NCBI GenBank assembly: GCA_964436255.1
Contig: CAYTBW010000004.1
Span: 2,685-66,684 of the forward strand
From: an uncultured Candidatus Saccharibacteria bacterium
GTDB taxonomy: Bacteria; Patescibacteriota; Saccharimonadia; CAILAD01; JADZBC01
Reading direction: 5' to 3'
DNA: 64,000 bases
The notes beneath the pieces are model-generated. The model was not told the origin of the DNA. It did no database searches and was given only the letters and a program-made list of their open reading frames with translations. The position numbers were made by a program, and so were the translations under genes. Of the stretch, positions 2,896-24,598 are shown piece by piece. Within the stretch, counting starts at the first letter, position 1, and every line of letters begins with the position of its first letter.

Positions 2896-2981
2896 TGGTA
2901 CCGCGGAGAGGACTCGAACCTCCACAGGATTGCTCCCACTAGAACCTGAATCTAGCGTGTCTACCATTCCACCACCGCGGC
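2896..2981 (-). tRNA. tRNA-Leu (anticodon CAG), class II with long variable arm, CCA encoded
   Basis: The reverse complement reads GCCGCGGTGGTGGAATGGTAGACACGCTAGATTCAGGTTCTAGTGGGAGCAATCCTGTGGAGGTTCGAGTCCTCTCCGCGGTACCA. It has a 7-bp acceptor stem, anticodon stem CTAGA/TCTAG with loop TTCAGGT, and a GGTTCGAGTCC T-arm. Confidence 0.9.
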
Positions 2982-3085
2982 TCAATTAAAGTTACTGTGC
3001 AGTTTAACGTCATACTGGACGAAAAACACCCCGACACGCTGGTGTCTACGTCTATTTACGTTTCACGCAGCACCACCGCGGCTCA
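2970..3085. repeat. 15-bp direct repeat CACCACCGCGGCTCA (2970-2984 and 3071-3085): the tRNA-Leu 5' end is duplicated about 100 bp upstream
   Basis: Exact 15-mer match. The second copy is preceded by GGTGTCTACG, resembling the tRNA D-arm segment GTGTCTACC. Confidence 0.8.
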
Positions 3086-3162
3086 TTTATAACAAATGGG
3101 GGCTCTTATGTCATTGCCGAACGTATAGCATTGTACTACAGAGGGTCTTGCCCAGTATAGAC

Positions 3163-4890
3163 TTAGCGTGCGTCACGTTTCAAAACACGAACTCGCTTCA
3201 TGAACCACGTCTCGATGTTATTAAACCTATCGCTCGGCTCGGAGATCTTACCCGCATCCGCCCCCTCCACACGGACATCTTGGCCGTAAAGATACAGCGG
3301 ACTATAAAGAAGTGCGGCGGGCACATCCTTTGACCACACATCCAGGAAGGAAGCAAACTTTGCGGCTCGCGTATTCGGGTCACGACTCAAGCGTGCTGCC
3401 TCTAGTAACTTATCTGCCTCAACGCTCTTATAATTAGATATGTTCAGCCCAGGGTCAGCAATCTGACTTGAGTGCCAGAACGAATACGCATCCGAATCTA
3501 TGCCTACGTTCTGACCATAGAGTAGCAAGTCGTAGTTTCGTGGTCGGACGTGATTTTGCTGCAGGCTGACGATGTCGGTTTCTTTGATTTCTACTGGTAC
3601 GCCAACGAGCTCTAATTGTTGAGCAATCTGCCTTGCTACTGTGCTATACTCCGGCGACTTAAGAGTAACCAGGCGCAATGGCTTTGTCGTTTTATTAGCC
3701 TGTAAAACCTTGGATGCGGCTACCTGATCATGCTGATAGCGAACAGCTTTTGGGTTGAATCCAGCCTGGCCGGGGAGTATTGGGTAGTACACCGGCACAG
3801 CTCGGCTCGAGAGTGAGCCAGCGATGATACTATCTCGGTCAATCGCCTGCGTTATTGCCTGCCGTACAGAAGTATTGGCGAGGTAAGACGTCTTAGTATT
3901 ATAGAACAGCCCTACGTAGGCCGGCAAACTATATTCGTATATCTTCAGGCTTTCATTCTTTTCTGCAGCTCGAAGCTGGTTGGGATTAAGCTGAGAGATT
4001 CCCATAATCTGCTTACGAGCATAGCCGTCGAGCAGTGCCGCAGGGGTCGTATAAAGCGCGAAGTGAACCTCGTCCATCTTTGGGCGTCCTCGGTAATATT
4101 CCGAGTTAGCACGCAAGGTAATGAGTCCCAAATCGCTACCGAAGTCGTCAAGCACATAGGGGCCGGTACCAATTGGTCTTTGGCTAAAAGGGTTAACCCT
4201 AAGTTGTGAAAGCTGGATTGAATCAAGCAAATGGCTTGGCAATATGCCTACCGTAGTTGCAGATAGAAATGCTGTATAGCTATTTGGCAAGACAAACTTA
4301 ATCGTCTGCTCGTTCACCACTTCGTACTTTATGCCCTGCCAATTGTAGGCCAGCGGAGACTTGCTATCCGGGTTCTGTATGGCGGCTACCGTGAATGCGA
4401 CGTCCTTAGCGGTAAACGGTTGACCATCGTGCCACTTTACGTCCTTACGGAGATAGAACGTATAACTCTTTTGATCTGCTGAGATATCCCAACGCTCAGC
4501 CAGATCAGGCTCTATCTTGCGATCGCTGCCAACCTTTGTTAAGCCATTAAAGATCAATCTATTTACGTCGCTTGTGGCAGTGTTCTCGGGCAGGATGGGG
4601 TTCAAAATCCTAACTTCCCCTAATAAACCTTCGGTGTATACTCCCCCTTGAACTGGCTGCGTGGTGACAAAAAATGTATCCAAGCTGCCTATTCCTGCAA
4701 CTACACCCCAAACAGATACCGCAACGACAACGAGCCAGGATACAAACATCCACCGCATTGGGCCAAGCTTCTGCCACGCTCCATATACGTGCCTTTCGAG
4801 ATAGTTGCTAAGCCAACGTCGGCCAACCCATAATTGCTTGCGTAAACGGCGGGACTGTCTATGCCACCTAAACTTTATATAGGACCACAT
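3163..4890 (-). CDS. ABC transporter substrate-binding protein, family 5 (peptide/nickel type)
   Basis: 575 aa with an N-terminal membrane anchor. Overall OppA/DppA-like sequence (EGLLGEVRILNPIL..., DVKWHDGQPFTAKDV, GTGPYVL). Confidence 0.8.
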   Translation of the reverse strand: MWSYIKFRWHRQSRRLRKQLWVGRRWLSNYLERHVYGAWQKLGPMRWMFVSWLVVVAVSVWGVVAGIGSLDTFFVTTQPVQGGVYTEGLLGEVRILNPILPENTATSDVNRLIFNGLTKVGSDRKIEPDLAERWDISADQKSYTFYLRKDVKWHDGQPFTAKDVAFTVAAIQNPDSKSPLAYNWQGIKYEVVNEQTIKFVLPNSYTAFLSATTVGILPSHLLDSIQLSQLRVNPFSQRPIGTGPYVLDDFGSDLGLITLRANSEYYRGRPKMDEVHFALYTTPAALLDGYARKQIMGISQLNPNQLRAAEKNESLKIYEYSLPAYVGLFYNTKTSYLANTSVRQAITQAIDRDSIIAGSLSSRAVPVYYPILPGQAGFNPKAVRYQHDQVAASKVLQANKTTKPLRLVTLKSPEYSTVARQIAQQLELVGVPVEIKETDIVSLQQNHVRPRNYDLLLYGQNVGIDSDAYSFWHSSQIADPGLNISNYKSVEADKLLEAARLSRDPNTRAAKFASFLDVWSKDVPAALLYSPLYLYGQDVRVEGADAGKISEPSDRFNNIETWFMKRVRVLKRDAR

Positions 4891-5108
4891 TACTTAACAA
4901 CGAGACCGCCCAATAAGCTCCCGACAAAGATAATAGCGATCACGATGGTAGCGTAAAATAAAGCCTTCTCTGCACCGCGCTTAGACCTATAGAAGTTTCC
5001 TTCGCCTCCCCACGCACCACCTAGGCCTGCACCTTGGTTCTGCAAAAGTATTACTACGGTCAAGAGCACCGCGCTAATTAGGGTTACGTACTGTAGGATT
5101 TGCTTCAT
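4890..5108 (-). CDS. secG: preprotein translocase subunit SecG
   Basis: 72 aa, two TM helices, LLQNQGAGLGGAWGG motif typical of SecG. Confidence 0.8.
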   Translation of the reverse strand: MKQILQYVTLISAVLLTVVILLQNQGAGLGGAWGGEGNFYRSKRGAEKALFYATIVIAIIFVGSLLGGLVVK

Positions 5109-5461
5109 GCTTTTTCCTCCTTTATTAAACTAACTGCGGCATAGTTCACGAGCCAAACTATAGTGACCGCACCGAGTGCTGACCAGATTGACGTTATATC
5201 AAACGGCTTATAGATAGCACTTGTCAGGTAAAGCATAGCGGTATTAACTATAAGTGTAAAGAGCCCCAGCGTAAGCATTATAGCGGGCAATGAGAGTATG
5301 ATCGCCAAAGGTCGGATTAATGCATTAACTAAACCGAATATTAAACTCGCGACGATCAGTACTCGAAGCTTATCTTGATATTGAATCCCAGAAAACAATT
5401 GAGCAGCTATGGTGAGGCCGATAAAGTTCGCCGCCCAACTATATAGAAAGCGTTTTAGCAT
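5105..5461 (-). CDS. four-TM membrane protein of the phage-holin-4-like (PF04020-type) family
   Basis: 118 aa. FIGLTIAAQLF...LIFGLVNALIRPL..LSLP...TLGLF pattern. Overlaps secG by 4 nt. Confidence 0.55.
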   Translation of the reverse strand: MLKRFLYSWAANFIGLTIAAQLFSGIQYQDKLRVLIVASLIFGLVNALIRPLAIILSLPAIMLTLGLFTLIVNTAMLYLTSAIYKPFDITSIWSALGAVTIVWLVNYAAVSLIKEEKA

Positions 5462-5480
5462 TCATTAATTATACCATATA

Positions 5481-6971
5481 TCAGGTGTGACGCTTAGATC
5501 CTGAACTATGGATTGACTCATATATTAGACCCGCTTTTACGCCAACTATTTTCTCCAATTCAACCAAGGAAGCCTCTCGCACGCCACTCACACTGCCGAA
5601 GCTACGGACTAACTTTCGCCGAGTAACCGGCCCCACCCCTGGTATTGAATCAAGTAGCGATGTCTTGGTCCTTTTGTCTCTCAGATGAGTGTGGTAGCTA
5701 ACCGCAAAACGGTGTGCCTCATCCCTCACCCGCTGCAAAAGCTGGAGCGACGGTGAGCTATGTTTAATTCTTAACGTCGTGAAGGCCTCCTCCTCCAATA
5801 GCTCATCACCTTCTTGCGGCCTTATAGTGGCCGTAGAGGAAACTTGGTCCTTAATACGCACCACCTCTTCGTAGCGCTTTGCCAAACCGAAACGCGCTAT
5901 GTTAATCCCGAGCTCCTCTAAAACCTCGCTGGCCGCCGAAAGCTGGCCTTTGCCGCCGTCGATCAGTATTAAGTCCGGCTTCCTCCAATCATGCTTTCCG
6001 CTAAAGCGTCGGCGCATTGTCTCTGCCATCATAGCAAAATCATTTGGACCTTTTGTCCGCATTTTAAAGTGCCGATATTCCCGCTGATCGGGCAGTCCGT
6101 TTGTAAAAACAATCATACTACTCACGGCGTCACCGCCAGCAAAGTTCGATATATCATAAGCCTCAATCCTCCCCGGGGGACCGCTCAGCCCAAACCGATC
6201 GCTCAGCCCATTAAGGGCCTGATCGAGCGTAAAATCGAACGTCTCCTCTTTGCCGAACACACTCTTCTGGGAGAGAGATTTTAATGCCAAGTATTGGTCG
6301 CGCAACTTCGCTGCTTCCTCGAACCTCTTGGCCTTAGCAGCCTTCTTCATCGCGCCCTCAATCTCTCGAATGAGCTTCATGCTATCACCCCTAAGGATCA
6401 TAGTGAGTTTGCGTAAGTTAGCTTTATAGTCCGCCGAGCTTATATCTGGAGCCGGTGAAACACCGATTTGATGTTGCAATGCACTCACCTTGGGCCAAGC
6501 TGCGTCTGTGATGTAAGGGAATATTCTGCGCAGATACCGCATAGCTGAACGAACGCTTCCGCCGGATACAAATGGGCCAAAGTACGTCGCCTTATCGTCT
6601 TGTGGCCTACGGACATAACTCACACGAGGAAAGTCTTCCTGCGTAGTAATCTTAATATAGAGGAAGTTTTTGTCATCACGCAGCTCGACGTTATAGAGGG
6701 GCTTATGACGCTTAACGAGTTCTGATTCTAAGAACAATGCCTCAATTTCCGAGCTCGTTACAATCCAGTCGACGTCGGCTATGTTCTCTACAAGTATCGG
6801 TGTTTTTGTGTCTTTGTGATGTTTTTGAAAATACGAAGATACCCTACGTTTTAAGATGGAAGCTTTTCCCACATAGATAATTTTACCCTTCGCATCTTTA
6901 TAGAGATATACACCTGGCTCTGCAGGGAGCTGCTTGAGCTTGTCTTTAAGCTGTTGGTTCATAAGATCCAT
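5481..6971 (-). CDS. uvrC: excinuclease ABC subunit C (compact form, 496 aa)
   Basis: GIY-YIG N-terminus (GVYLYKDAKGKIIYVGKA), UVR motif (RFEEAAKLRDQYLAL), C-terminal HhH (IPGVGPVTRRKLVRSFGS). Confidence 0.9.
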   Translation of the reverse strand: MDLMNQQLKDKLKQLPAEPGVYLYKDAKGKIIYVGKASILKRRVSSYFQKHHKDTKTPILVENIADVDWIVTSSEIEALFLESELVKRHKPLYNVELRDDKNFLYIKITTQEDFPRVSYVRRPQDDKATYFGPFVSGGSVRSAMRYLRRIFPYITDAAWPKVSALQHQIGVSPAPDISSADYKANLRKLTMILRGDSMKLIREIEGAMKKAAKAKRFEEAAKLRDQYLALKSLSQKSVFGKEETFDFTLDQALNGLSDRFGLSGPPGRIEAYDISNFAGGDAVSSMIVFTNGLPDQREYRHFKMRTKGPNDFAMMAETMRRRFSGKHDWRKPDLILIDGGKGQLSAASEVLEELGINIARFGLAKRYEEVVRIKDQVSSTATIRPQEGDELLEEEAFTTLRIKHSSPSLQLLQRVRDEAHRFAVSYHTHLRDKRTKTSLLDSIPGVGPVTRRKLVRSFGSVSGVREASLVELEKIVGVKAGLIYESIHSSGSKRHT

Positions 6972-7002
6972 TATATCAACTATTGCTAGTTTCTAATATG
7001 CA

Positions 7003-7031
7003 TTGCATAACTGTTTCGCCTGGGCTATACT
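7003..7031 (+). promoter_or_regulatory. sigma70-like promoter TTGCAT-17-TATACT at the left edge of GC-rich segment A
   Basis: TTGCAT 7003-7008, 17-nt spacer, TATACT 7026-7031. Pattern only. It lies in the uvrC upstream gap. Confidence 0.4.
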
Positions 7032-7142
7032 CTAGTTGTCCCGTCCATTCGAGCCCTGGAGGCAAAGATCCTTACCAAACAGTCCCTTATCTTCCAGCTG
7101 CAACTTGCCCTCCACGGTGAGCACGACAGTCTGGTTCCGCAC

Positions 7143-7451
7143 TTGGCCCTCGTTCTATCTGACATCCTGGTGGCCCAGCGCGAGATGCTCACAATCGTAT
7201 CCACTGAGTCGGCGACAGAGGAGGAACGGCCCGACGAACCACCATGGGAGCTTCTCGATGCTCAGGCTCGCATTGCTGCTCGCTTCGATCAAGCTGTGCA
7301 CCGCTTCGGGGACAAGTTGAACATAGAACACTTCTCCGACCTGGTTCAACGTTCACTCGGCAGCGCTGAAGAAAACGGCGGTCACGAGCGAGAACGCATC
7401 CTGCGCGAGATCGCCGCCGAGCACAACACCACGCCCATCGAGCGTCCTTGA
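7143..7451 (+). CDS. hypothetical protein; start uncertain (frame open back to 7011 with no canonical start before the TTG at 7143)
   Basis: Track ORF of 102 aa. The same frame reads ...PSIRALEAKILTKQSLIFQLQLALHGEHDSLVPH upstream. The stop at 7449-7451 runs straight into a 14-bp hairpin. Confidence 0.55.
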   Translation: MALVLSDILVAQREMLTIVSTESATEEERPDEPPWELLDAQARIAARFDQAVHRFGDKLNIEHFSDLVQRSLGSAEENGGHERERILREIAAEHNTTPIERP

Positions 7452-7484
7452 AGGGTCGCAGTAACAACCGTTACTGCGACCCTT
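7451..7484 (+). terminator. perfect hairpin AGGGTCGCAGTAAC-aacc-GTTACTGCGACCCT followed by TTCCCTTT
   Basis: Arms 7452-7465 and 7470-7483 are exactly complementary. Confidence 0.7.
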
Positions 7485-7516
7485 TCCCTTTGATAACTAC
7501 TTTTTGTCATAGTGTA

Positions 7517-7545
7517 TTGACATTATTTGCAAACTGTGCTATCAT
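7517..7545 (+). promoter_or_regulatory. near-consensus promoter TTGACA-17-TATCAT with a TG-n extended -10
   Basis: TTGACA 7517-7522; TGCTATCAT spans 7537-7545. It sits in a short AT-rich patch inside the GC-rich island, about 180 nt upstream of the ATG at 7725. Confidence 0.55.
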
Positions 7546-7603
7546 ATTTGGCACGTTCCTAGTTTTTCTACTTTGAATGTACATTTAAAACCGACTACTT
7601 ATT

Positions 7604-7619
7604 GTCAATATGTATTGAC
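7604..7619 (+). promoter_or_regulatory. perfect palindrome GTCAATA-TG-TATTGAC (operator candidate); the 9-mer TGTATTGAC also occurs at 7513-7521 over the -35
   Basis: Arms 7604-7610 and 7613-7619 are reverse complements. TGTATTGAC occurs at both 7513-7521 and 7611-7619. Confidence 0.5.
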
Positions 7620-7629
7620 TCTTGACCTG

Positions 7630-7668
7630 CGGATACCTGTAAAGCAACGCCTGCTTTGCGGCTATCCG
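7630..7668 (+). promoter_or_regulatory. imperfect ~15-bp stem-loop in the 5' leader of the 7725 ORF
   Basis: CGGATA (7630-7635) pairs with TATCCG (7663-7668). GTAAAGC (7639-7645) pairs with GCTTTGC (7653-7659). The loop is 7 nt and no U-tract follows. Confidence 0.45.
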
Positions 7669-7724
7669 TACTGGCCAAGAGTCTGCCAACGGAATTCACC
7701 CCAAAAGACTCACTTGGAGGGCCC

Positions 7725-8489
7725 ATGGCCATCACCGAAGACACCCAGTCCATCCTCGCGATCACCGCGACCGACACCGCCAAGGAGGCGATCATCATCG
7801 CCCTCGCGGGCGGTGTGCGGTTCCAGACCGTCGACGAGGCCCTGGCCTGGTCGGAGACGGCCCAGGCGGCCAAGTACCTGTTCGGCACCCACTCGAGCGC
7901 TGCGAGGAACCTCTTCCAGCTGCGCGAGCAGCTGAAGCGGGAGAAGTCGGCCCAGAGCGCCCTGGCGCGCCTGAACCGACTGTGGCTCAACGGCACCGTG
8001 CAGACGGCGCTGTGGAAGGCCTTCGTCCGCGAGGACATCCGCAAGGCCCTCGTGGCCGAGCTGAAGGAGGCCAGCCGCAAGGACATCGAGGCCCGCAACG
8101 CGGTCCTCGAGAAGGTCATTGCCCGGCTGGACGCCAAGGATGCCGAGGAGACCGAGAAGGAGGAGCTGATCGCCCAGATCAAGCCCCTCGTCGAGGACTC
8201 CTACTTCCTGAACGTCATCGTCGGCCGGGACAGCCTGCGACCCGACAGCCTGCGGGCGATCGACAAGATCATCGCCGGCAAGGGTGTGAGCGTCCACCTC
8301 GGGCAGCTGCGCGGCCTGGCCAAGCACCTCGGCAACATCCACCGCAGCTCCTCCGGGAGCGACGGTGGCCGCCGTGGCAAGGGCAAGGACCCGCGCAAGG
8401 CCGAGAAGGCGGCGCGTGACCGGGCGATCCGGGCACGGATGCACCAGCCCAAGGGCCAGGAACCGTCCAAGCACGGCAAGAAGAAGTAG
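7725..8489 (+). CDS. hypothetical protein (254 aa), helical with a lysine/arginine-rich C-terminal tail
   Basis: ATG at 7725 preceded by GGAGG (7716-7720). GC3 jumps to nearly 100% only after this ATG, so the track start at 7656 is rejected. The tail is GGRRGKGKDPRKAEKAARDRAIRARMHQPKGQEPSKHGKKK. No family recognised. Confidence 0.7.
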   Translation: MAITEDTQSILAITATDTAKEAIIIALAGGVRFQTVDEALAWSETAQAAKYLFGTHSSAARNLFQLREQLKREKSAQSALARLNRLWLNGTVQTALWKAFVREDIRKALVAELKEASRKDIEARNAVLEKVIARLDAKDAEETEKEELIAQIKPLVEDSYFLNVIVGRDSLRPDSLRAIDKIIAGKGVSVHLGQLRGLAKHLGNIHRSSSGSDGGRRGKGKDPRKAEKAARDRAIRARMHQPKGQEPSKHGKKK

Positions 8490-8497
8490 TCGGCCTA

Positions 8498-8538
8498 GCC
8501 GGATCCACCAGAGCAGCGTTGCTCTAGGTGGATCCGGC
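8498..8538 (+). terminator. long GC hairpin GCCGGATCCACCAGAGCA-gcgt-TGCTCTaGGTGGATCCGGC; a second hairpin follows at 8539-8577
   Basis: 18 paired bases with one bulge and no U-tract. CCCGACC (8539-8545) pairs with GGTCGGG (8571-8577) and encloses TAGAC-ata-GTCTA. Confidence 0.6.
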
Positions 8539-8582
8539 CCCGACCCAAGTTTAGACATAGTCTAGATTTAGGTCGGGATTAC

Positions 8583-8613
8583 AAAAACACCACTCAAAAT
8601 AAGTGGTGTTTTT
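8583..8613 (-). terminator. uvrA terminator, A/U-tract flanked (AAAAACACCACT-caaaata-AGTGGTGTTTTT)
   Basis: 12-bp perfect stem, 18 nt downstream of the uvrA stop. Symmetric, so potentially bidirectional. Confidence 0.75.
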
Positions 8614-8630
8614 GCTTTGGCTTTATAGCC

Positions 8631-11447
8631 TTACGTAAGGAGCTTTTGTAAATATTGGCCGGTGTGGGATTTAACAACCTTTGCAACCTGTTCCGGGGTA
8701 CCTTCGGCAATGACTATGCCGCCGCCGCTTCCGCCTTCTGGGCCTAGATCGATCAGCCAATCAGCACACTTAACAACGTCCAGATTGTGCTCGATGATCA
8801 GCATGGAGTTCCCCATGGTCACGAGTGCGTTAAGCACTTCTAGAAGTTTCTTGACGTCTTCAAAGTGCAAGCCGGTGGTTGGCTCATCTAGAATGTAGAG
8901 CGTTCTACCAGTGGCTCGCTTGGAAAGTTCGCTCGCCAGCTTAATACGTTGCGCCTCCCCACCCGACAGCGTGGTGGCAGATTGTCCTAGGCGGATATAA
9001 CCAAGTCCTACACTGCGCAACGTCTCGAGCTTACGATACACTGCTGGAATATTACCAAAGAAATCACAAGCATCCTCCACGGTCATCTCCAAAACATCGG
9101 CAATAGTCCTGCCCTTATATAAAATCTCTAAAGCTTCACGGTTATAGCGCTTGCCATGGCACGTTTCGCAGGTTACGTACACGTCTGGCAAGAAGTGCAT
9201 TTCAATCTTGATAATCCCATCGCCCTTACACGTCTCGCAGCGGCCACCTTTTACATTAAAGCTAAACCGACCAGAGCTGTAGCCACGAATCTTGGCTTCC
9301 GGCACCATGGCAAATAAATCGCGGATATCGGTAAAGGCACCTGTATATGTTGCTGGGTTTGATCGCGGTGTACGGCCAATCGGAGACTGGTTAATGTCGA
9401 TTACTTTATCCAAGTGCTCGGTTCCTAGGATCTCCTGATGCTTGCCAGCTGGCTCCTGCGCTCGATGGTACTCCTGGCTTAGCTTGCGGGCCAATATATC
9501 ATTTATGAGTGATGACTTGCCAGATCCAGACACCCCAGTTACGACCGTCATGATGCCGAGAGGAATATCGACCGATACGTCTTTTAAGTTATTTTCTGTT
9601 GCACCGACAATCCGAAGTTTCTTATCGGTTGGCTTGCGGCGTTGTTTTGGCACCTCGATTTTCTTAGCACCGCTCAGGTACTGGCCCGTCAAAGACTCTT
9701 TGCTCTTAGCGACTTCATCTGGGGTGCCAATAGCTATGACCTCACCGCCATGCTCGCCGGCAAGTGGACCGATGTCAACTACAAAGTCACTCGCTCGAAT
9801 AGTGTCTTCGTCATGCTCGACTACAATTACCGTGTTGCCGAGGTCTCGTAAGCGCTGTAGCGTACTAATCAATCTATCGTTGTCGCGTTGATGCAGGCCA
9901 ATTGATGGCTCATCAAGAATATAGAGCACACCCATGAGGCTGGAGCCAATCTGCGTTGCCAAACGAATACGCTGCGCCTCACCGCCAGCCAAGGTGTTAG
10001 CGCTACGATTCAATGTTAGGTAATTGAGACCAACATCATTTAAGAACTTAAGCCGCTCGCTAATCTCTTTAAGGATTTGCGCGGCTATTTGCTTTTCCTG
10101 CGAGTTCAGCTCAAGCCCAGAGAAAGTCCTTAGCGCATCTTCGACCGACATGCTGGTAAGGTCGGCAATCGACTTACCGTTTACGGTAATGGCCAACACT
10201 TCAGGCTTAAGACGCTTGCCGTGACACTCCAGGCACTCTTGTGTCGTCATGTATCGCTCGATCTCTTTCTTCACAAAGTCACTATCACTCTCACGATAAC
10301 GGCGTTCCAAATTAGGAATAATACCTTCAAAGGTTGTTTTATACGTACGTCCGCCCGGCCCGCGCACGCCAATTTCTTCGTCCCCTGTTCCATACAGCAA
10401 AATCTCAATTTCTTTAGTACTCAGCTTTTCGACCGGCACATCAAGCTTGAACTTGTGCTTCTCTGCGACTGCTTCGAGCAATTTGGTATACCACGTCATG
10501 CGCGAAGTAGTGCGGCTCCATGGACGAATAGCGCCCTCGACGACGCTAAGGCGACGATTCGGAATGACCATGTCGGGGTCTACGATCAAAAGCGAGCCCA
10601 AGCCAGTGCATTTAGGACAAGCCCCATGTGGCGAGTTAAATGAAAACAGTCGAGGCTCAATTTCTGGGAGTGAGAACCCGGAATCTGCCGTAGTGTAATG
10701 CTCGCTAAACACGCGCTCGTCACCAGTATCATGATCCTGTATGGTGATTACGCCTTCGCCCAAATGCAGTGCCTGCTCAATAGACTCGACCAAGCGCTGC
10801 CCGGGTTCATCTGGGTCAAGTGTCATTCGATCAACCGCTACCTCGATGGTGTGCTTCTTCTGCCTATCGAGTTCCGGTACTTCATCAATTGGCATCAGAG
10901 TGCCATTTAGGCGTACTCGGGAATAGCCTGCCTTTTGGATTTCACTTAGCAGGTGCCTGTGTTCGCCTTTTTTGTCTTTTACAATCGGAGCGAGAATAAC
11001 AATCTTTGTACCTTTAGGATACTGGCGGACCGAGTCCACGATCTGTGCTGGAGTCTGCTTGGTTAGGACCTCGCCTGTCGTGGGGTCATGCGGCACACCG
11101 ATGCGCGCGAAAAGTAATCGCAAGTAGTCATAGATCTCCGTAACCGTGGCAACGGTTGAACGTGGGTTGCGTGAACTAGACTTTTGGTCGATCGAGATAG
11201 CCGGACTCAGACCATCAATCTGATCAACATCGGGCTTTTCCATCAGGCCAAGGAACTGCCTGGCATAGGCACTAAGGCTCTCTACATATCGGCGCTGGCC
11301 TTCGGCGTAGATAGTATCGAATGCAAGTGAGGATTTTCCGGAGCCGGAGAGACCCGTAATTACCACTAGTTTGTCGCGGGGTATTTCGAGGTCTATGTTT
11401 TTGAGGTTGTGCTCGCGAGCACCCTTAATGACGATTTTATCAGCCAT
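8631..11447 (-). CDS. uvrA: excinuclease ABC subunit A
   Basis: 938 aa. Two ABC ATPase modules ([26 protein letters not shown] twice) and zinc-finger cysteines ([18 protein letters not shown]). Confidence 0.97.
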
Positions 11448-23865: not shown

Positions 23866-24525
23866 GTGGACCCAATCATCATTACCATTGACGGCGGAGC
23901 AGCAACCGGCACGTCTTCGTTGGCCAAAGCCCTGTCGAAGCATCTCGGCATCCCCTATATGAACACAGGCGAGCTCTACCGTGGCGTCGCCTTTCTTGCC
24001 CGTCAGCAAGGCCTGGACTTCGACTCTCCGGCGGCGATGGCTGCCATCGCCGAGATGATTGAGTTCGAGTTCCACGACGGCACGGTCATCGCACTGAACG
24101 GTCAACCCGTCAGCCAGGAAGACCTGCGCTCCGTCAGCGACATTGTGGAGCGTGTGTCGCCGCACCCGGACGTACGGAAGCACATCCAGGGCTGGCAAAC
24201 CCGCTTTGCCCAGACCAACAACTGCGTACTCGAAGGACGCGACCTGGGCAGCACCGTCTTCCCGAACGCCGCGTTCAAAGTCTTCCTGACCTGCGAGGAC
24301 ACAGAGCGGGCCAAGCGACGGTCGAACCATGAAGGACGCGTGGTGACCGTTGATGAGATCTTGAAGCGAGATCGAGCCGACGCCGAGCGGGACCACTCGC
24401 CCATGGTCTGCCCCGCAGAAGCACATCGCTTCGATACCACCCATACGAGCACGCCTGAGCTCGTGGGGATGGTGGAACGGCTGCTCATCGACATGCCAGG
24501 CGTCTGGGATCGGCTGAACAGCTAG
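23866..24525 (+). CDS. cytidylate kinase-like protein with a degenerate P-loop (GC-rich segment B)
   Basis: GTG start. ITIDGGAATGTSSLAKAL aligns to Cmk ITIDGPSGAGKGT, but the Walker-A Lys is Thr. GRDLGSTVFPNAAFKVFLT and RDRADAERDHSP align to Cmk core motifs. Hand count gives 62 G+C in 24001-24100. Confidence 0.75.
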   Translation: MDPIIITIDGGAATGTSSLAKALSKHLGIPYMNTGELYRGVAFLARQQGLDFDSPAAMAAIAEMIEFEFHDGTVIALNGQPVSQEDLRSVSDIVERVSPHPDVRKHIQGWQTRFAQTNNCVLEGRDLGSTVFPNAAFKVFLTCEDTERAKRRSNHEGRVVTVDEILKRDRADAERDHSPMVCPAEAHRFDTTHTSTPELVGMVERLLIDMPGVWDRLNS

Positions 24526-24539
24526 CGCGCGTACGCCCC

Positions 24540-24582
24540 GAGGCCCCTGCTAAAGATCACCGTGATCTTCTGCAGGGGCCTC
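24540..24582 (+). terminator. nested GC hairpin GAGGCCCCTGC...GCAGGGGCCTC enclosing AAGATCAC/GTGATCTT
   Basis: Outer 11-bp arms 24540-24550 and 24572-24582 are complementary. It starts 15 nt after the stop. Confidence 0.65.
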
Positions 24583-24598
24583 CCTCATTTATTTAATC

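Follow-up and report, generated by a model that had tools for sequence, protein, structure and literature searches.

A sigma-70-type promoter and a conserved folded 5′ leader upstream of an orphan gene between uvrC and uvrA in Candidatus Saccharibacteria

The 64,000-nt stretch analyzed here (contig CAYTBW010000004.1; referred to as the window) comes from an uncultured Candidatus Saccharibacteria bacterium with a genome GC content of ~50%. Its segment 7491–7724 comprises the promoter and the untranslated 5′ leader of a transcription unit conserved in a small Candidatus Saccharibacteria group. The gene that follows, open reading frame 2 (ORF2; 7725–8489, plus strand), encodes an all-helical protein of 254 residues with a basic C-terminal tail, and its GC content at third codon positions (GC3) is 0.95. 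By its sequence and predicted fold, the leader is a new conserved, structured, cis-acting 5′ untranslated region (UTR) that lies outside Rfam. As to its role, we tentatively favor, at a little short of an even chance, that the leader forms the 5′ portion of an mRNA on which selection has acted for structure and for resistance to nucleases, and which would be long-lived yet translatable.

The unit lies within a GC-rich segment of ~1.6 kb between uvrC (5481–6971, minus strand) and uvrA (8631–11447, minus strand), which holds two plus-strand ORFs, referred to as ORF1 and ORF2. ORF2 has few relatives: three among 5.8 billion proteins, five by profile search, and only ten HMMER matches in 1.84 billion cluster representatives, and its sole genome match is a Candidatus Saccharibacteria metagenome-assembled genome (MAG). 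The related loci compared with the window are labelled L001, L005, L007, L011, L012, L016, L018, L019, L020, and L023. The order uvrC–ORF1–ORF2–uvrA is found in P0002, P0003, and P0006, which are all of the ORF2 relatives with both flanks on the contig, and uvrA also lies downstream of the ORF2 relative on the short contigs of P0004 and P0005. Hence, this is a resident locus rather than a recent insertion, and the term island, under which the preliminary description had introduced it, does not hold in that sense. Both the promoter and the upstream leader, with a GC of 0.30, are rich in AT, which ORF2 is not. A megablast search of a phage database with 6900–8700 gave no match.

The promoter spans 7517–7545 on the plus strand and, by sequence, falls within the definition of an extended −10 sigma-70 promoter. 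The −35 element TTGACA (7517–7522) is followed by a 17-nt spacer and the −10 element TATCAT (7540–7545), and the TG at 7537–7538 extends the latter to TGcTATCAT; in the promoter scan, 11 of 12 consensus positions match, in addition to the TG. The pattern TTGACA-N14-TGNTANNNT occurs once in the window versus 0.02 times expected by chance. The relatives share the architecture TTGACA-17-TGnTAnnnT, and in the 17 loci with an upstream region, some of them with genes elsewhere in the genome (L016, L018, and L019), the extended pattern is found exactly once per locus and always 5′ of the family gene. We therefore judge the promoter to be real, and the near-consensus promoter of the preliminary description stands with its coordinates exact. 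The spacing predicts a transcription start near 7552 (7551–7553).

The predicted leader (7552–7724) folds with an energy of −53.7 kcal/mol (z = −5.5), and none of 200 shuffles is as stable. Single-sequence folds of the leaders of L001, L005, and L011 give z values of −5.9, −7.7, and −5.5, respectively. The first hairpin, P1 (7553–7580), starts 8 nt past the −10 element and would thus sit at or within ~2 nt of the predicted RNA 5′ end; the distance is likewise 8 nt in L005 and is 3 nt in L016, with the RNA 5′ end being a predicted one. P1 is followed by the motif CCRACUACUUA (7591–7601; CCGACTACTTA in the window and CCAACTACTTA in the L005 clade), whose columns are invariant and which is predicted to be unpaired. 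The second hairpin, P2 (7617–7683), is a long, imperfect one of 67 nt with ~28 pairs and a 5-nt loop, closed by GACTCTTGACC and GGCCAAGAGTC. The stem-loop noticed earlier at 7630–7668 is present, but as the inner part of P2 rather than as the entire hairpin. A conserved 27-nt block, CCGTACTGGCCAAGRGTCT(T)GCCARCGG (7666–7692), runs from the 3′ arm of P2 into the 5′ arm of P3. P3 (7679–7711) pairs GAGUCU (7679–7684) with AGACUC (7706–7711). As they share nucleotides, the base of P2 and P3 are mutually exclusive. The Shine–Dalgarno (SD) sequence GGAGG (7716–7720) and the start codon ATG (7725–7727), together spanning 7716–7727, are predicted to be mostly unpaired, and so are the first ORF2 codons. 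P2 is followed by GAGUCUGCCAACGG, which is not a U-tract, and the only terminator that the scan of the region returns is at 8582–8614. Hence, the leader is not an attenuator or intrinsic terminator.

We then inspected the conservation of this fold in an alignment of five to six leaders from ~3–4 independent lineages, whose ORF2 proteins are 32–38% identical to that of the window, aside from L001 with 86%. On the alignment, 91.6% of the cells of the named structure are paired versus 28–38% when the partners are slid, and nine pairs show changes on both sides versus zero to two in the slid controls. In L001, L020, and the L005 clade, P1 differs in sequence but is kept as a structure, and three of its pairs have double changes. 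P2 is paired in 92.6% of its cells, and five of its 19 pairs have double changes. Its mid-helix sequence differs by clade, CCUGUAAAGCA...UGCUUUGCGG versus UUAUAUGCAGA...UCUGCAUAUAA, and is paired in all; in L005, P2 consists of 21 perfect pairs, and the same hairpin appears in separate single-sequence folds of the relatives. P3 (GRGUCU/AGACYC) is paired in 100% of its cells, and at the R position the window and L001 have an A-U pair, and L020, L005, L007, and L011 a G-C pair. P1, P2, and P3 were all retained when L020 was added to the alignment. The check for covariation of the stem-loop in homologous loci, which the preliminary description had proposed, thus finds P2 kept with compensatory changes, and the long folded leader without a U-tract is supported as a conserved folded RNA. 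The idea that it could be a processing or RNA-binding site remains viable. Leaders of distant members, unrelated in sequence, follow this plan as well, with a P1-like hairpin and then a long one (z = −6.6 and −5.4).

Known RNA families do not account for the leader. A search of 6900–8700 with the Rfam 15 covariance models at E values up to 10 gave no match in 7484–7724, and the other matches in 6900–8700 were far under their gathering scores. The match to MIR6154 (28.7 bits versus a gathering score of 100) was rejected, as it is merely the hairpin T1 located 3′ of ORF2. Two mini-ORFs in the leader, ATG TAC ATT TAA (7577–7588) and ATG TAT TGA (7610–7618), were dismissed as they are not conserved in L001. 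The 27-nt block, which reads CCGUACUGGCCAAGRGUCU(U)GCCARCGG in RNA, occurs once in the window. Outside the locus, it gave three chance hits in coding regions of unrelated GC-rich metagenome contigs and none in viral contigs. In L018 (2480–2560) and L019 (1100–1130), where the tail genes lie beside a HIT-family gene, a motif UGAAAAGGAAGAG is located just 5′ of long hairpins; it may be equivalent to CCRACUACUUA.

The structure continues into the coding sequence. We compared each native coding sequence with 32–40 shuffles, obtained by redistributing synonymous codons over the positions that encode a given amino acid. Eleven genes, namely eight ORF2 alleles and three distant genes sharing the ORF2 tail, fold stabler than their shuffles (z from −1.7 to −6.2); ten have z below −2.3, and none of the shuffles of those ten reaches the native energy. 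The seven control sequences taken from the window, among them four uvrC/uvrA segments, cmk, and ORF1, have z values between −1.5 and +1.2. For 17 control ORFs from truly GC-rich contigs (GC3 0.73–0.82), picked by coding-like GC periodicity, z ranges from −2.2 to +1.4; high GC3 as such thus does not produce the excess of structure. In six of seven tests, the score is stronger for the sense than for the antisense strand, which favors RNA over DNA as the selected molecule. Downstream of the stop codon, the 3′ UTR of ORF2 (8498–8614, plus strand) forms three hairpins, T1 (8498–8538), T2 (8539–8577), and T3 (8582–8614), all of them conserved between clades. For T2 (CCCCRACCCAAGU..UUUAGGU.GGG), this includes the sequence, and T3 is a bidirectional terminator common to ORF2 and the convergent uvrA.

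The base composition of ORF2 sets it apart from its surroundings. The other real ORFs of at least 150 residues in the window have GC3 of 0.44–0.63, save the cytidylate-kinase gene (0.76), and the ORF2 relatives have 0.87–0.96 versus 0.43–0.62 for the flanking uvr genes and 0.43–0.66 for adjacent genes that are not part of GC-rich clusters. The alleles with high GC3 lie at 7725–8489 in the window, 4813–5583 in L001, 8289–9083 in L005, 232–1026 in L011, 69–866 in L012, 4001–4780 in L020, and 57–788 in L023. ORF2 uses only CTG and CTC for Leu and only AAG for Lys, has ATC 16 times and ATT once, unlike the genome, and contains three TA dinucleotides in 765 nt. The distant tail-family genes, L016 4241–5245, L018 2559–3083, and L019 1232–1747, lie at unrelated sites and have GC3 of 0.91–0.96; neighbors outside the GC-rich cluster of L016 have 0.45–0.71, and, over all genomes with these alleles and tail-family genes, the other genes outside GC-rich gene clusters have 0.43–0.71, groEL among them with 0.59. 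Each of these three genes has a perfect promoter and a leader made of a P1-like hairpin and a long hairpin, with unrelated sequences. To judge from the shuffle test, the synonymous sites of ORF2 appear to be shaped mainly by selection for RNA structure. Two other causes of the high GC3 were rejected. Translational selection does not fit the values of groES (0.54) and groEL (0.59) in L016, nor the preference of ORF2 for ATC, whereas the reference genes favor ATT. Recent transfer from a high-GC donor as the sole cause is contradicted by the scarcity of matches (ten in 1.84 billion), by the loci themselves, which include two annotated Saccharibacteria MAGs while the rest have the same synteny or moderate-GC neighbors, and by the persistence of GC3 at 0.87–0.96 over alleles 32–38% identical to the window ORF2.

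Taken as part of such an mRNA, the leader would act at the RNA level rather than as DNA operators. P1 and P2 would belong to a transcript selected over its whole length for secondary structure, in which P1 would protect the 5′ end and a long helix, P2, would guard the transcript body. Protection would be directed against 5′-end-dependent and single-strand-specific ribonucleases, and the outcome would be a long-lived transcript that could still be translated, since the ribosome-binding site stays open. The high GC3 would then be a consequence of selection for pairing. Several points weigh against this proposal. The start site, and hence the 5′-terminal place of P1, is a predicted one. The covariation statistics are weak, with ~3–4 independent lineages, and the shuffle control ignores relatedness; the covariation is thus supportive rather than conclusive. 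Over its full length, the L019 leader shows no significant structure (z = −1.2), and the coding sequence of the L023 allele has a weak z of −1.7. Moreover, the 27-nt block and CCRACUACUUA are kept in sequence, which a pure stabilizer does not need. Their conservation suggests an extra constraint from a protein, an RNA, or an alternative helix, and as the stabilized-mRNA proposal leaves them unexplained, an RNase III site and a translational operator stay alive as alternatives.

In the first alternative, P2 would be an RNase III site, and cleavage would remove P1 and the motif, thereby maturing or destabilizing the ORF2 mRNA; T1 would be a possible second site. We regard this as unlikely but worth keeping in view. 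No U-tract follows the long, imperfect helix P2; its middle varies in sequence by clade with pairing kept, it becomes a perfect 21-bp helix in the L005 clade, and a similar long hairpin follows the ORF2 stop codon. Helices of this length class are assigned to RNase III substrates; with about two turns or more of double-stranded RNA, P2 is long enough, and the cleavage is putative. A single processing site, however, leaves the structure selection over the whole coding sequence unexplained, and it is not exclusive with a stabilized mRNA.

The competition between the base of P2 and P3 raises a second alternative, in which the leader is a translational operator or switch. AAGRGUC would pair either with the P2 5′ base or with AGACYC of P3, which lies just 5′ of the SD, and a factor would pick the fold and so set translation or decay; the candidates are the ORF2 protein via its basic tail, another protein, and a small ligand. 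The R position covaries with both partners, being A-U or G-C in P3, and A-U (window and L001), G-U (L020), or G-C (L005 clade) at the P2 base. Also in line with a switch, the 27-nt block is nearly invariant though the ORF2 proteins are 32–38% identical, and the Arg/Lys-rich tail is the most conserved part of the protein. Against these stand the SD, which neither helix covers, the lack of an Rfam family match at E values up to 10, and the confinement of the block to the locus in the metagenome and viral contig scans. L018 and L019 carry the same tail without the block, L016 keeps only UAUCCG..GGCCAAG of it, and a long near-perfect hairpin is atypical of ligand-binding aptamers. On balance, a switch seems rather unlikely.

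The repeats around the promoter bear on yet another explanation, that the functional elements are DNA operators. The 9-mer TGTATTGAC is indeed present twice, at 7513–7521 (box 1) and 7611–7619 (box 2), which alone is weak, as at least two copies arise in 5 of 100 shuffles. It forms the end of a longer, 26-nt direct repeat (7496–7521 and 7594–7619, plus strand; 22 of 26 positions identical, 98 bp apart). Copy A (ACTACTTTTTGTCATAGTGTATTGAC) overlaps the −35 element and holds box 1. Copy B, which is weak in L001 and L020, holds box 2 and the palindrome GTCAATATGTATTGAC (7604–7619); this is present as first described, GTCAATA-TG-TATTGAC, with TATTGAC on the minus strand at 7604–7610 and on the plus strand at 7613–7619. 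The preliminary description took the box over the −35 element and the dyad as operators, at which a repressor, possibly ORF1 or ORF2, would loop the DNA or block RNA polymerase. The length of the repeat, the presence of three of the six TATTGAC copies of the 64-kb window within 105 bp, and the occurrence of TATTGAC at both positions in L001 and L020 (100 bp apart in L001) speak for such operators, yet the total of TATTGAC in the window equals chance (6 observed versus 6.35 expected). Box 1 is kept in all lineages as TATTGACA or CATTGACA, which is accounted for by the −35 element plus its flank. The palindrome is found in the window alone, L001 having GTTAGTGACTATTGAC and L020 GTTAGTGTCTATTGAC instead, and in the alignment box 2 is inside a clade-specific insertion of 15 nt; L005, L007, and L011 lack this insertion and keep the promoter, P1, P2, and P3. 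The layout does not pass the refuting check that the preliminary description had set for it, conservation in homologous loci, and looping or a roadblock is thus not supported. Protein family scans detected no DNA-binding domain in ORF1 or ORF2, and L005 and L007 have identical ORF2 and leader with unrelated ORF1 genes, so that ORF1 is not a dedicated regulator. A second promoter at box 2 was also rejected, as no usable −10 element lies 16–19 nt downstream. We give DNA operators a very slim chance; by sequence, the boxes and the palindrome are a lineage-specific local duplication of the −35 flank. The likeness to lac O1/O2/O3 and gal OE/OI, a repeat over the −35 element and a dyad ~55–65 bp past the predicted start, is confined to the window; unlike in those systems, the dyad and second box are unconserved here, and no DNA-binding protein was found encoded nearby.

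Comparison of the loci segment by segment shows stronger conservation in the UTRs than in the coding sequence (80–97% versus 45–65% nucleotide identity). Between L020 (compared over 2900–5300) and L001, the leader is 80–88% identical, the 3′ UTR 87–97%, ORF2 45–65% in nucleotides, and the flanks 75–82%; the promoter spacer is identical, ORF1 is unrelated, and the ORF2 proteins are 34% identical. Between L005 and L007, the sequence is 97–100% identical from just past the −10 element through the 3′ UTR (compared over L005 7300–9210), uvrC is 70–88% identical, and ORF1 is unrelated. Both types are found in one sample, ERZ28656156. Change at four-fold degenerate sites in uvrA and uvrC has reached saturation in every comparison of lineages (0.34–0.47 identity). 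This mosaic pattern indicates that the locus swaps segments between lineages, which fits the natural competence and recombination of homologous DNA reported for Saccharibacteria (PMC10633639). Saccharibacteria are now transformable (PMC10633639). A further explanation is that leader and 3′ UTR matter chiefly as DNA, serving competent Saccharibacteria as homology arms for exchange of highly divergent ORF2 alleles at one fixed locus, with hairpins that are incidental or mark recombination breakpoints. The near-identity of L005 and L007 from −10 through 3′ UTR amid diverged uvrC and unrelated ORF1, the leader, promoter spacer, and 3′ UTR shared by L001 and L020 around ORF2 proteins 34% identical, the co-occurrence of both types in one sample, and the reported competence all agree with it. 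Homology arms need no pairing, yet compensatory changes preserve it here; distant members at other loci differ in leader sequence and share the fold plan; and folding is better on the sense than on the antisense strand, pointing to RNA. We therefore see a slim chance that the UTRs matter as homology arms, and note that recombination and RNA function may coexist.

The best conserved part of the ORF2 protein is its Arg/Lys-rich tail (approximately residues 213–254, encoded by 8361–8486), with the pattern G[KR]G[KR][DS]PRKAxK[SA]ARD[RK]xIRxxM..KGQKP..KK. The tail is common to P0006–P0014, and the HMMER matches beyond the ORF2 family are different proteins that share the tail alone. Scans of ORF1, ORF2, and the distant members against Pfam, PHROGs, NCBIfam, and PADLOC returned sub-threshold noise only, and a PDB sequence search with the cassette proteins returned nothing meaningful. 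Judged by these searches, the cassette proteins belong to no known family or fold. An antisense ORF that covers all of ORF2 (7710–8558, minus strand, 282 residues) was rejected as a gene; its GC at first codon positions is 0.91, a by-product of the GC3 of 0.95. A 158-residue minus-strand ORF called over the ORF1 region of L001 is probably a similar by-product.

Upstream of the promoter, ORF1 (7011–7451, plus strand) encodes a small acidic protein with no family match. Its frame stays open after the stop codon at 7008, and no ATG, GTG, or TTG precedes the TTG at 7143; likewise, there is none in L001. ORF1 is ~70% identical to its counterpart in L001 and 33% to that in L007, with homology to the latter starting near 7068. 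L005 and L020 have unrelated sequence in its place, and L005, L007, and L020 have a normal SD and ATG. ORF1 of the window may thus have an unusual start codon, a 5′ truncation, or be decaying. It is followed by a perfect 15-bp hairpin (7451–7484, plus strand; arms 7451–7465 and 7470–7484) and then TTTCCCTTT. Counterparts occur in L001, L005, L007, and L020. The hairpin likely terminates ORF1 and bounds the ORF2 unit on its upstream side.

Two other GC-rich features were observed. In L016, three more orphan genes with GC3 of 0.80–0.83 lie beside the tail gene, at 5488–5970 (plus), 5990–6268 (plus), and 6410–6850 (minus), and form a small GC-rich cluster near groES and groEL. In the window, the cytidylate-kinase gene at 23866–24525 (Pfam E = 3.6e-45) has a GC of 0.615 and a GC3 of 0.76 and is on the plus strand among minus-strand genes. 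A GC-rich hairpin follows it at ~24540–24590, it has no cassette promoter, and its coding z is only −1.5. This gene may have been horizontally acquired.

Together, the consensus promoter, the hairpin leader, the orphan gene with a basic tail, and the structured 3′ hairpins make up a cassette type so far undescribed in Saccharibacteria; literature searches on codon usage and GC3 in these bacteria turned up no account of genes of this sort. What is surprising is the cassette as such, with a GC3 of ~0.95 across very divergent alleles, selection for structure over the entire mRNA, UTRs that outlast the coding sequence, and mosaic exchange. To our knowledge, almost no RNA-level regulation has been described in this phylum, and codon-level selection for structure over a whole bacterial mRNA is rare. 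Saccharibacteria are ultra-small epibiotic bacteria, and a far-fetched idea would be that the cassette mRNA or its product acts outside the Saccharibacterium cytoplasm, in the high-GC actinobacterial host. It would get there across the epibiont–host junction or through a relaxase-less type IV secretion system. If true, transfer to the host would explain a codon usage like that of high-GC bacteria and unlike the resident genome, a nuclease-resistant transcript folded end to end, UTRs conserved above the protein, fast-evolving N-terminal domains swapped between lineages, and a shared basic tail, possibly for RNA binding or as an export signal. The type IV secretion system of these bacteria has no relaxase and no known substrate (bioRxiv 10.1101/2025.01.22.634366; PMC10633639). 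A simpler reading than host transfer is that the high GC3 arose as a side effect of selection for RNA structure.

By analogy, the leader would work most like 5′ stabilizer hairpins or RNase III leader sites. The 5′-terminal stabilizing stem-loops include those of the ompA 5′ UTR in E. coli and of the aprE and ermC leaders in B. subtilis. The leader resembles them in having a hairpin at or near the 5′ end, which here is a predicted one, no U-tract, and a strong, open ribosome-binding site, with protection from 5′-end-dependent decay to be expected. It differs from them in the second helix of ~28 pairs, the sequence-invariant blocks, the structured 3′ hairpins, and the codon-level structure selection through the whole coding region. 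The RNase III leader sites include those of rnc and pnp in E. coli, the phage lambda N leader, and the phage T7 R sites. In common with these, the leader has an imperfect 5′-UTR helix of at least 20 bp whose mid-helix is conserved in pairing rather than in sequence; different from them, its 3′ arm is conserved in sequence and overlaps the competing helix P3, and its cleavage is putative. A third comparison is with highly folded RNAs, such as engineered mRNAs optimized for half-life and the genomes of RNA viruses with ordered structure. Like those, the cassette has synonymous sites that would maximize pairing, an open initiation region, and structured ends; unlike those, it is a natural, chromosomal bacterial gene family without replicase or capsid genes.

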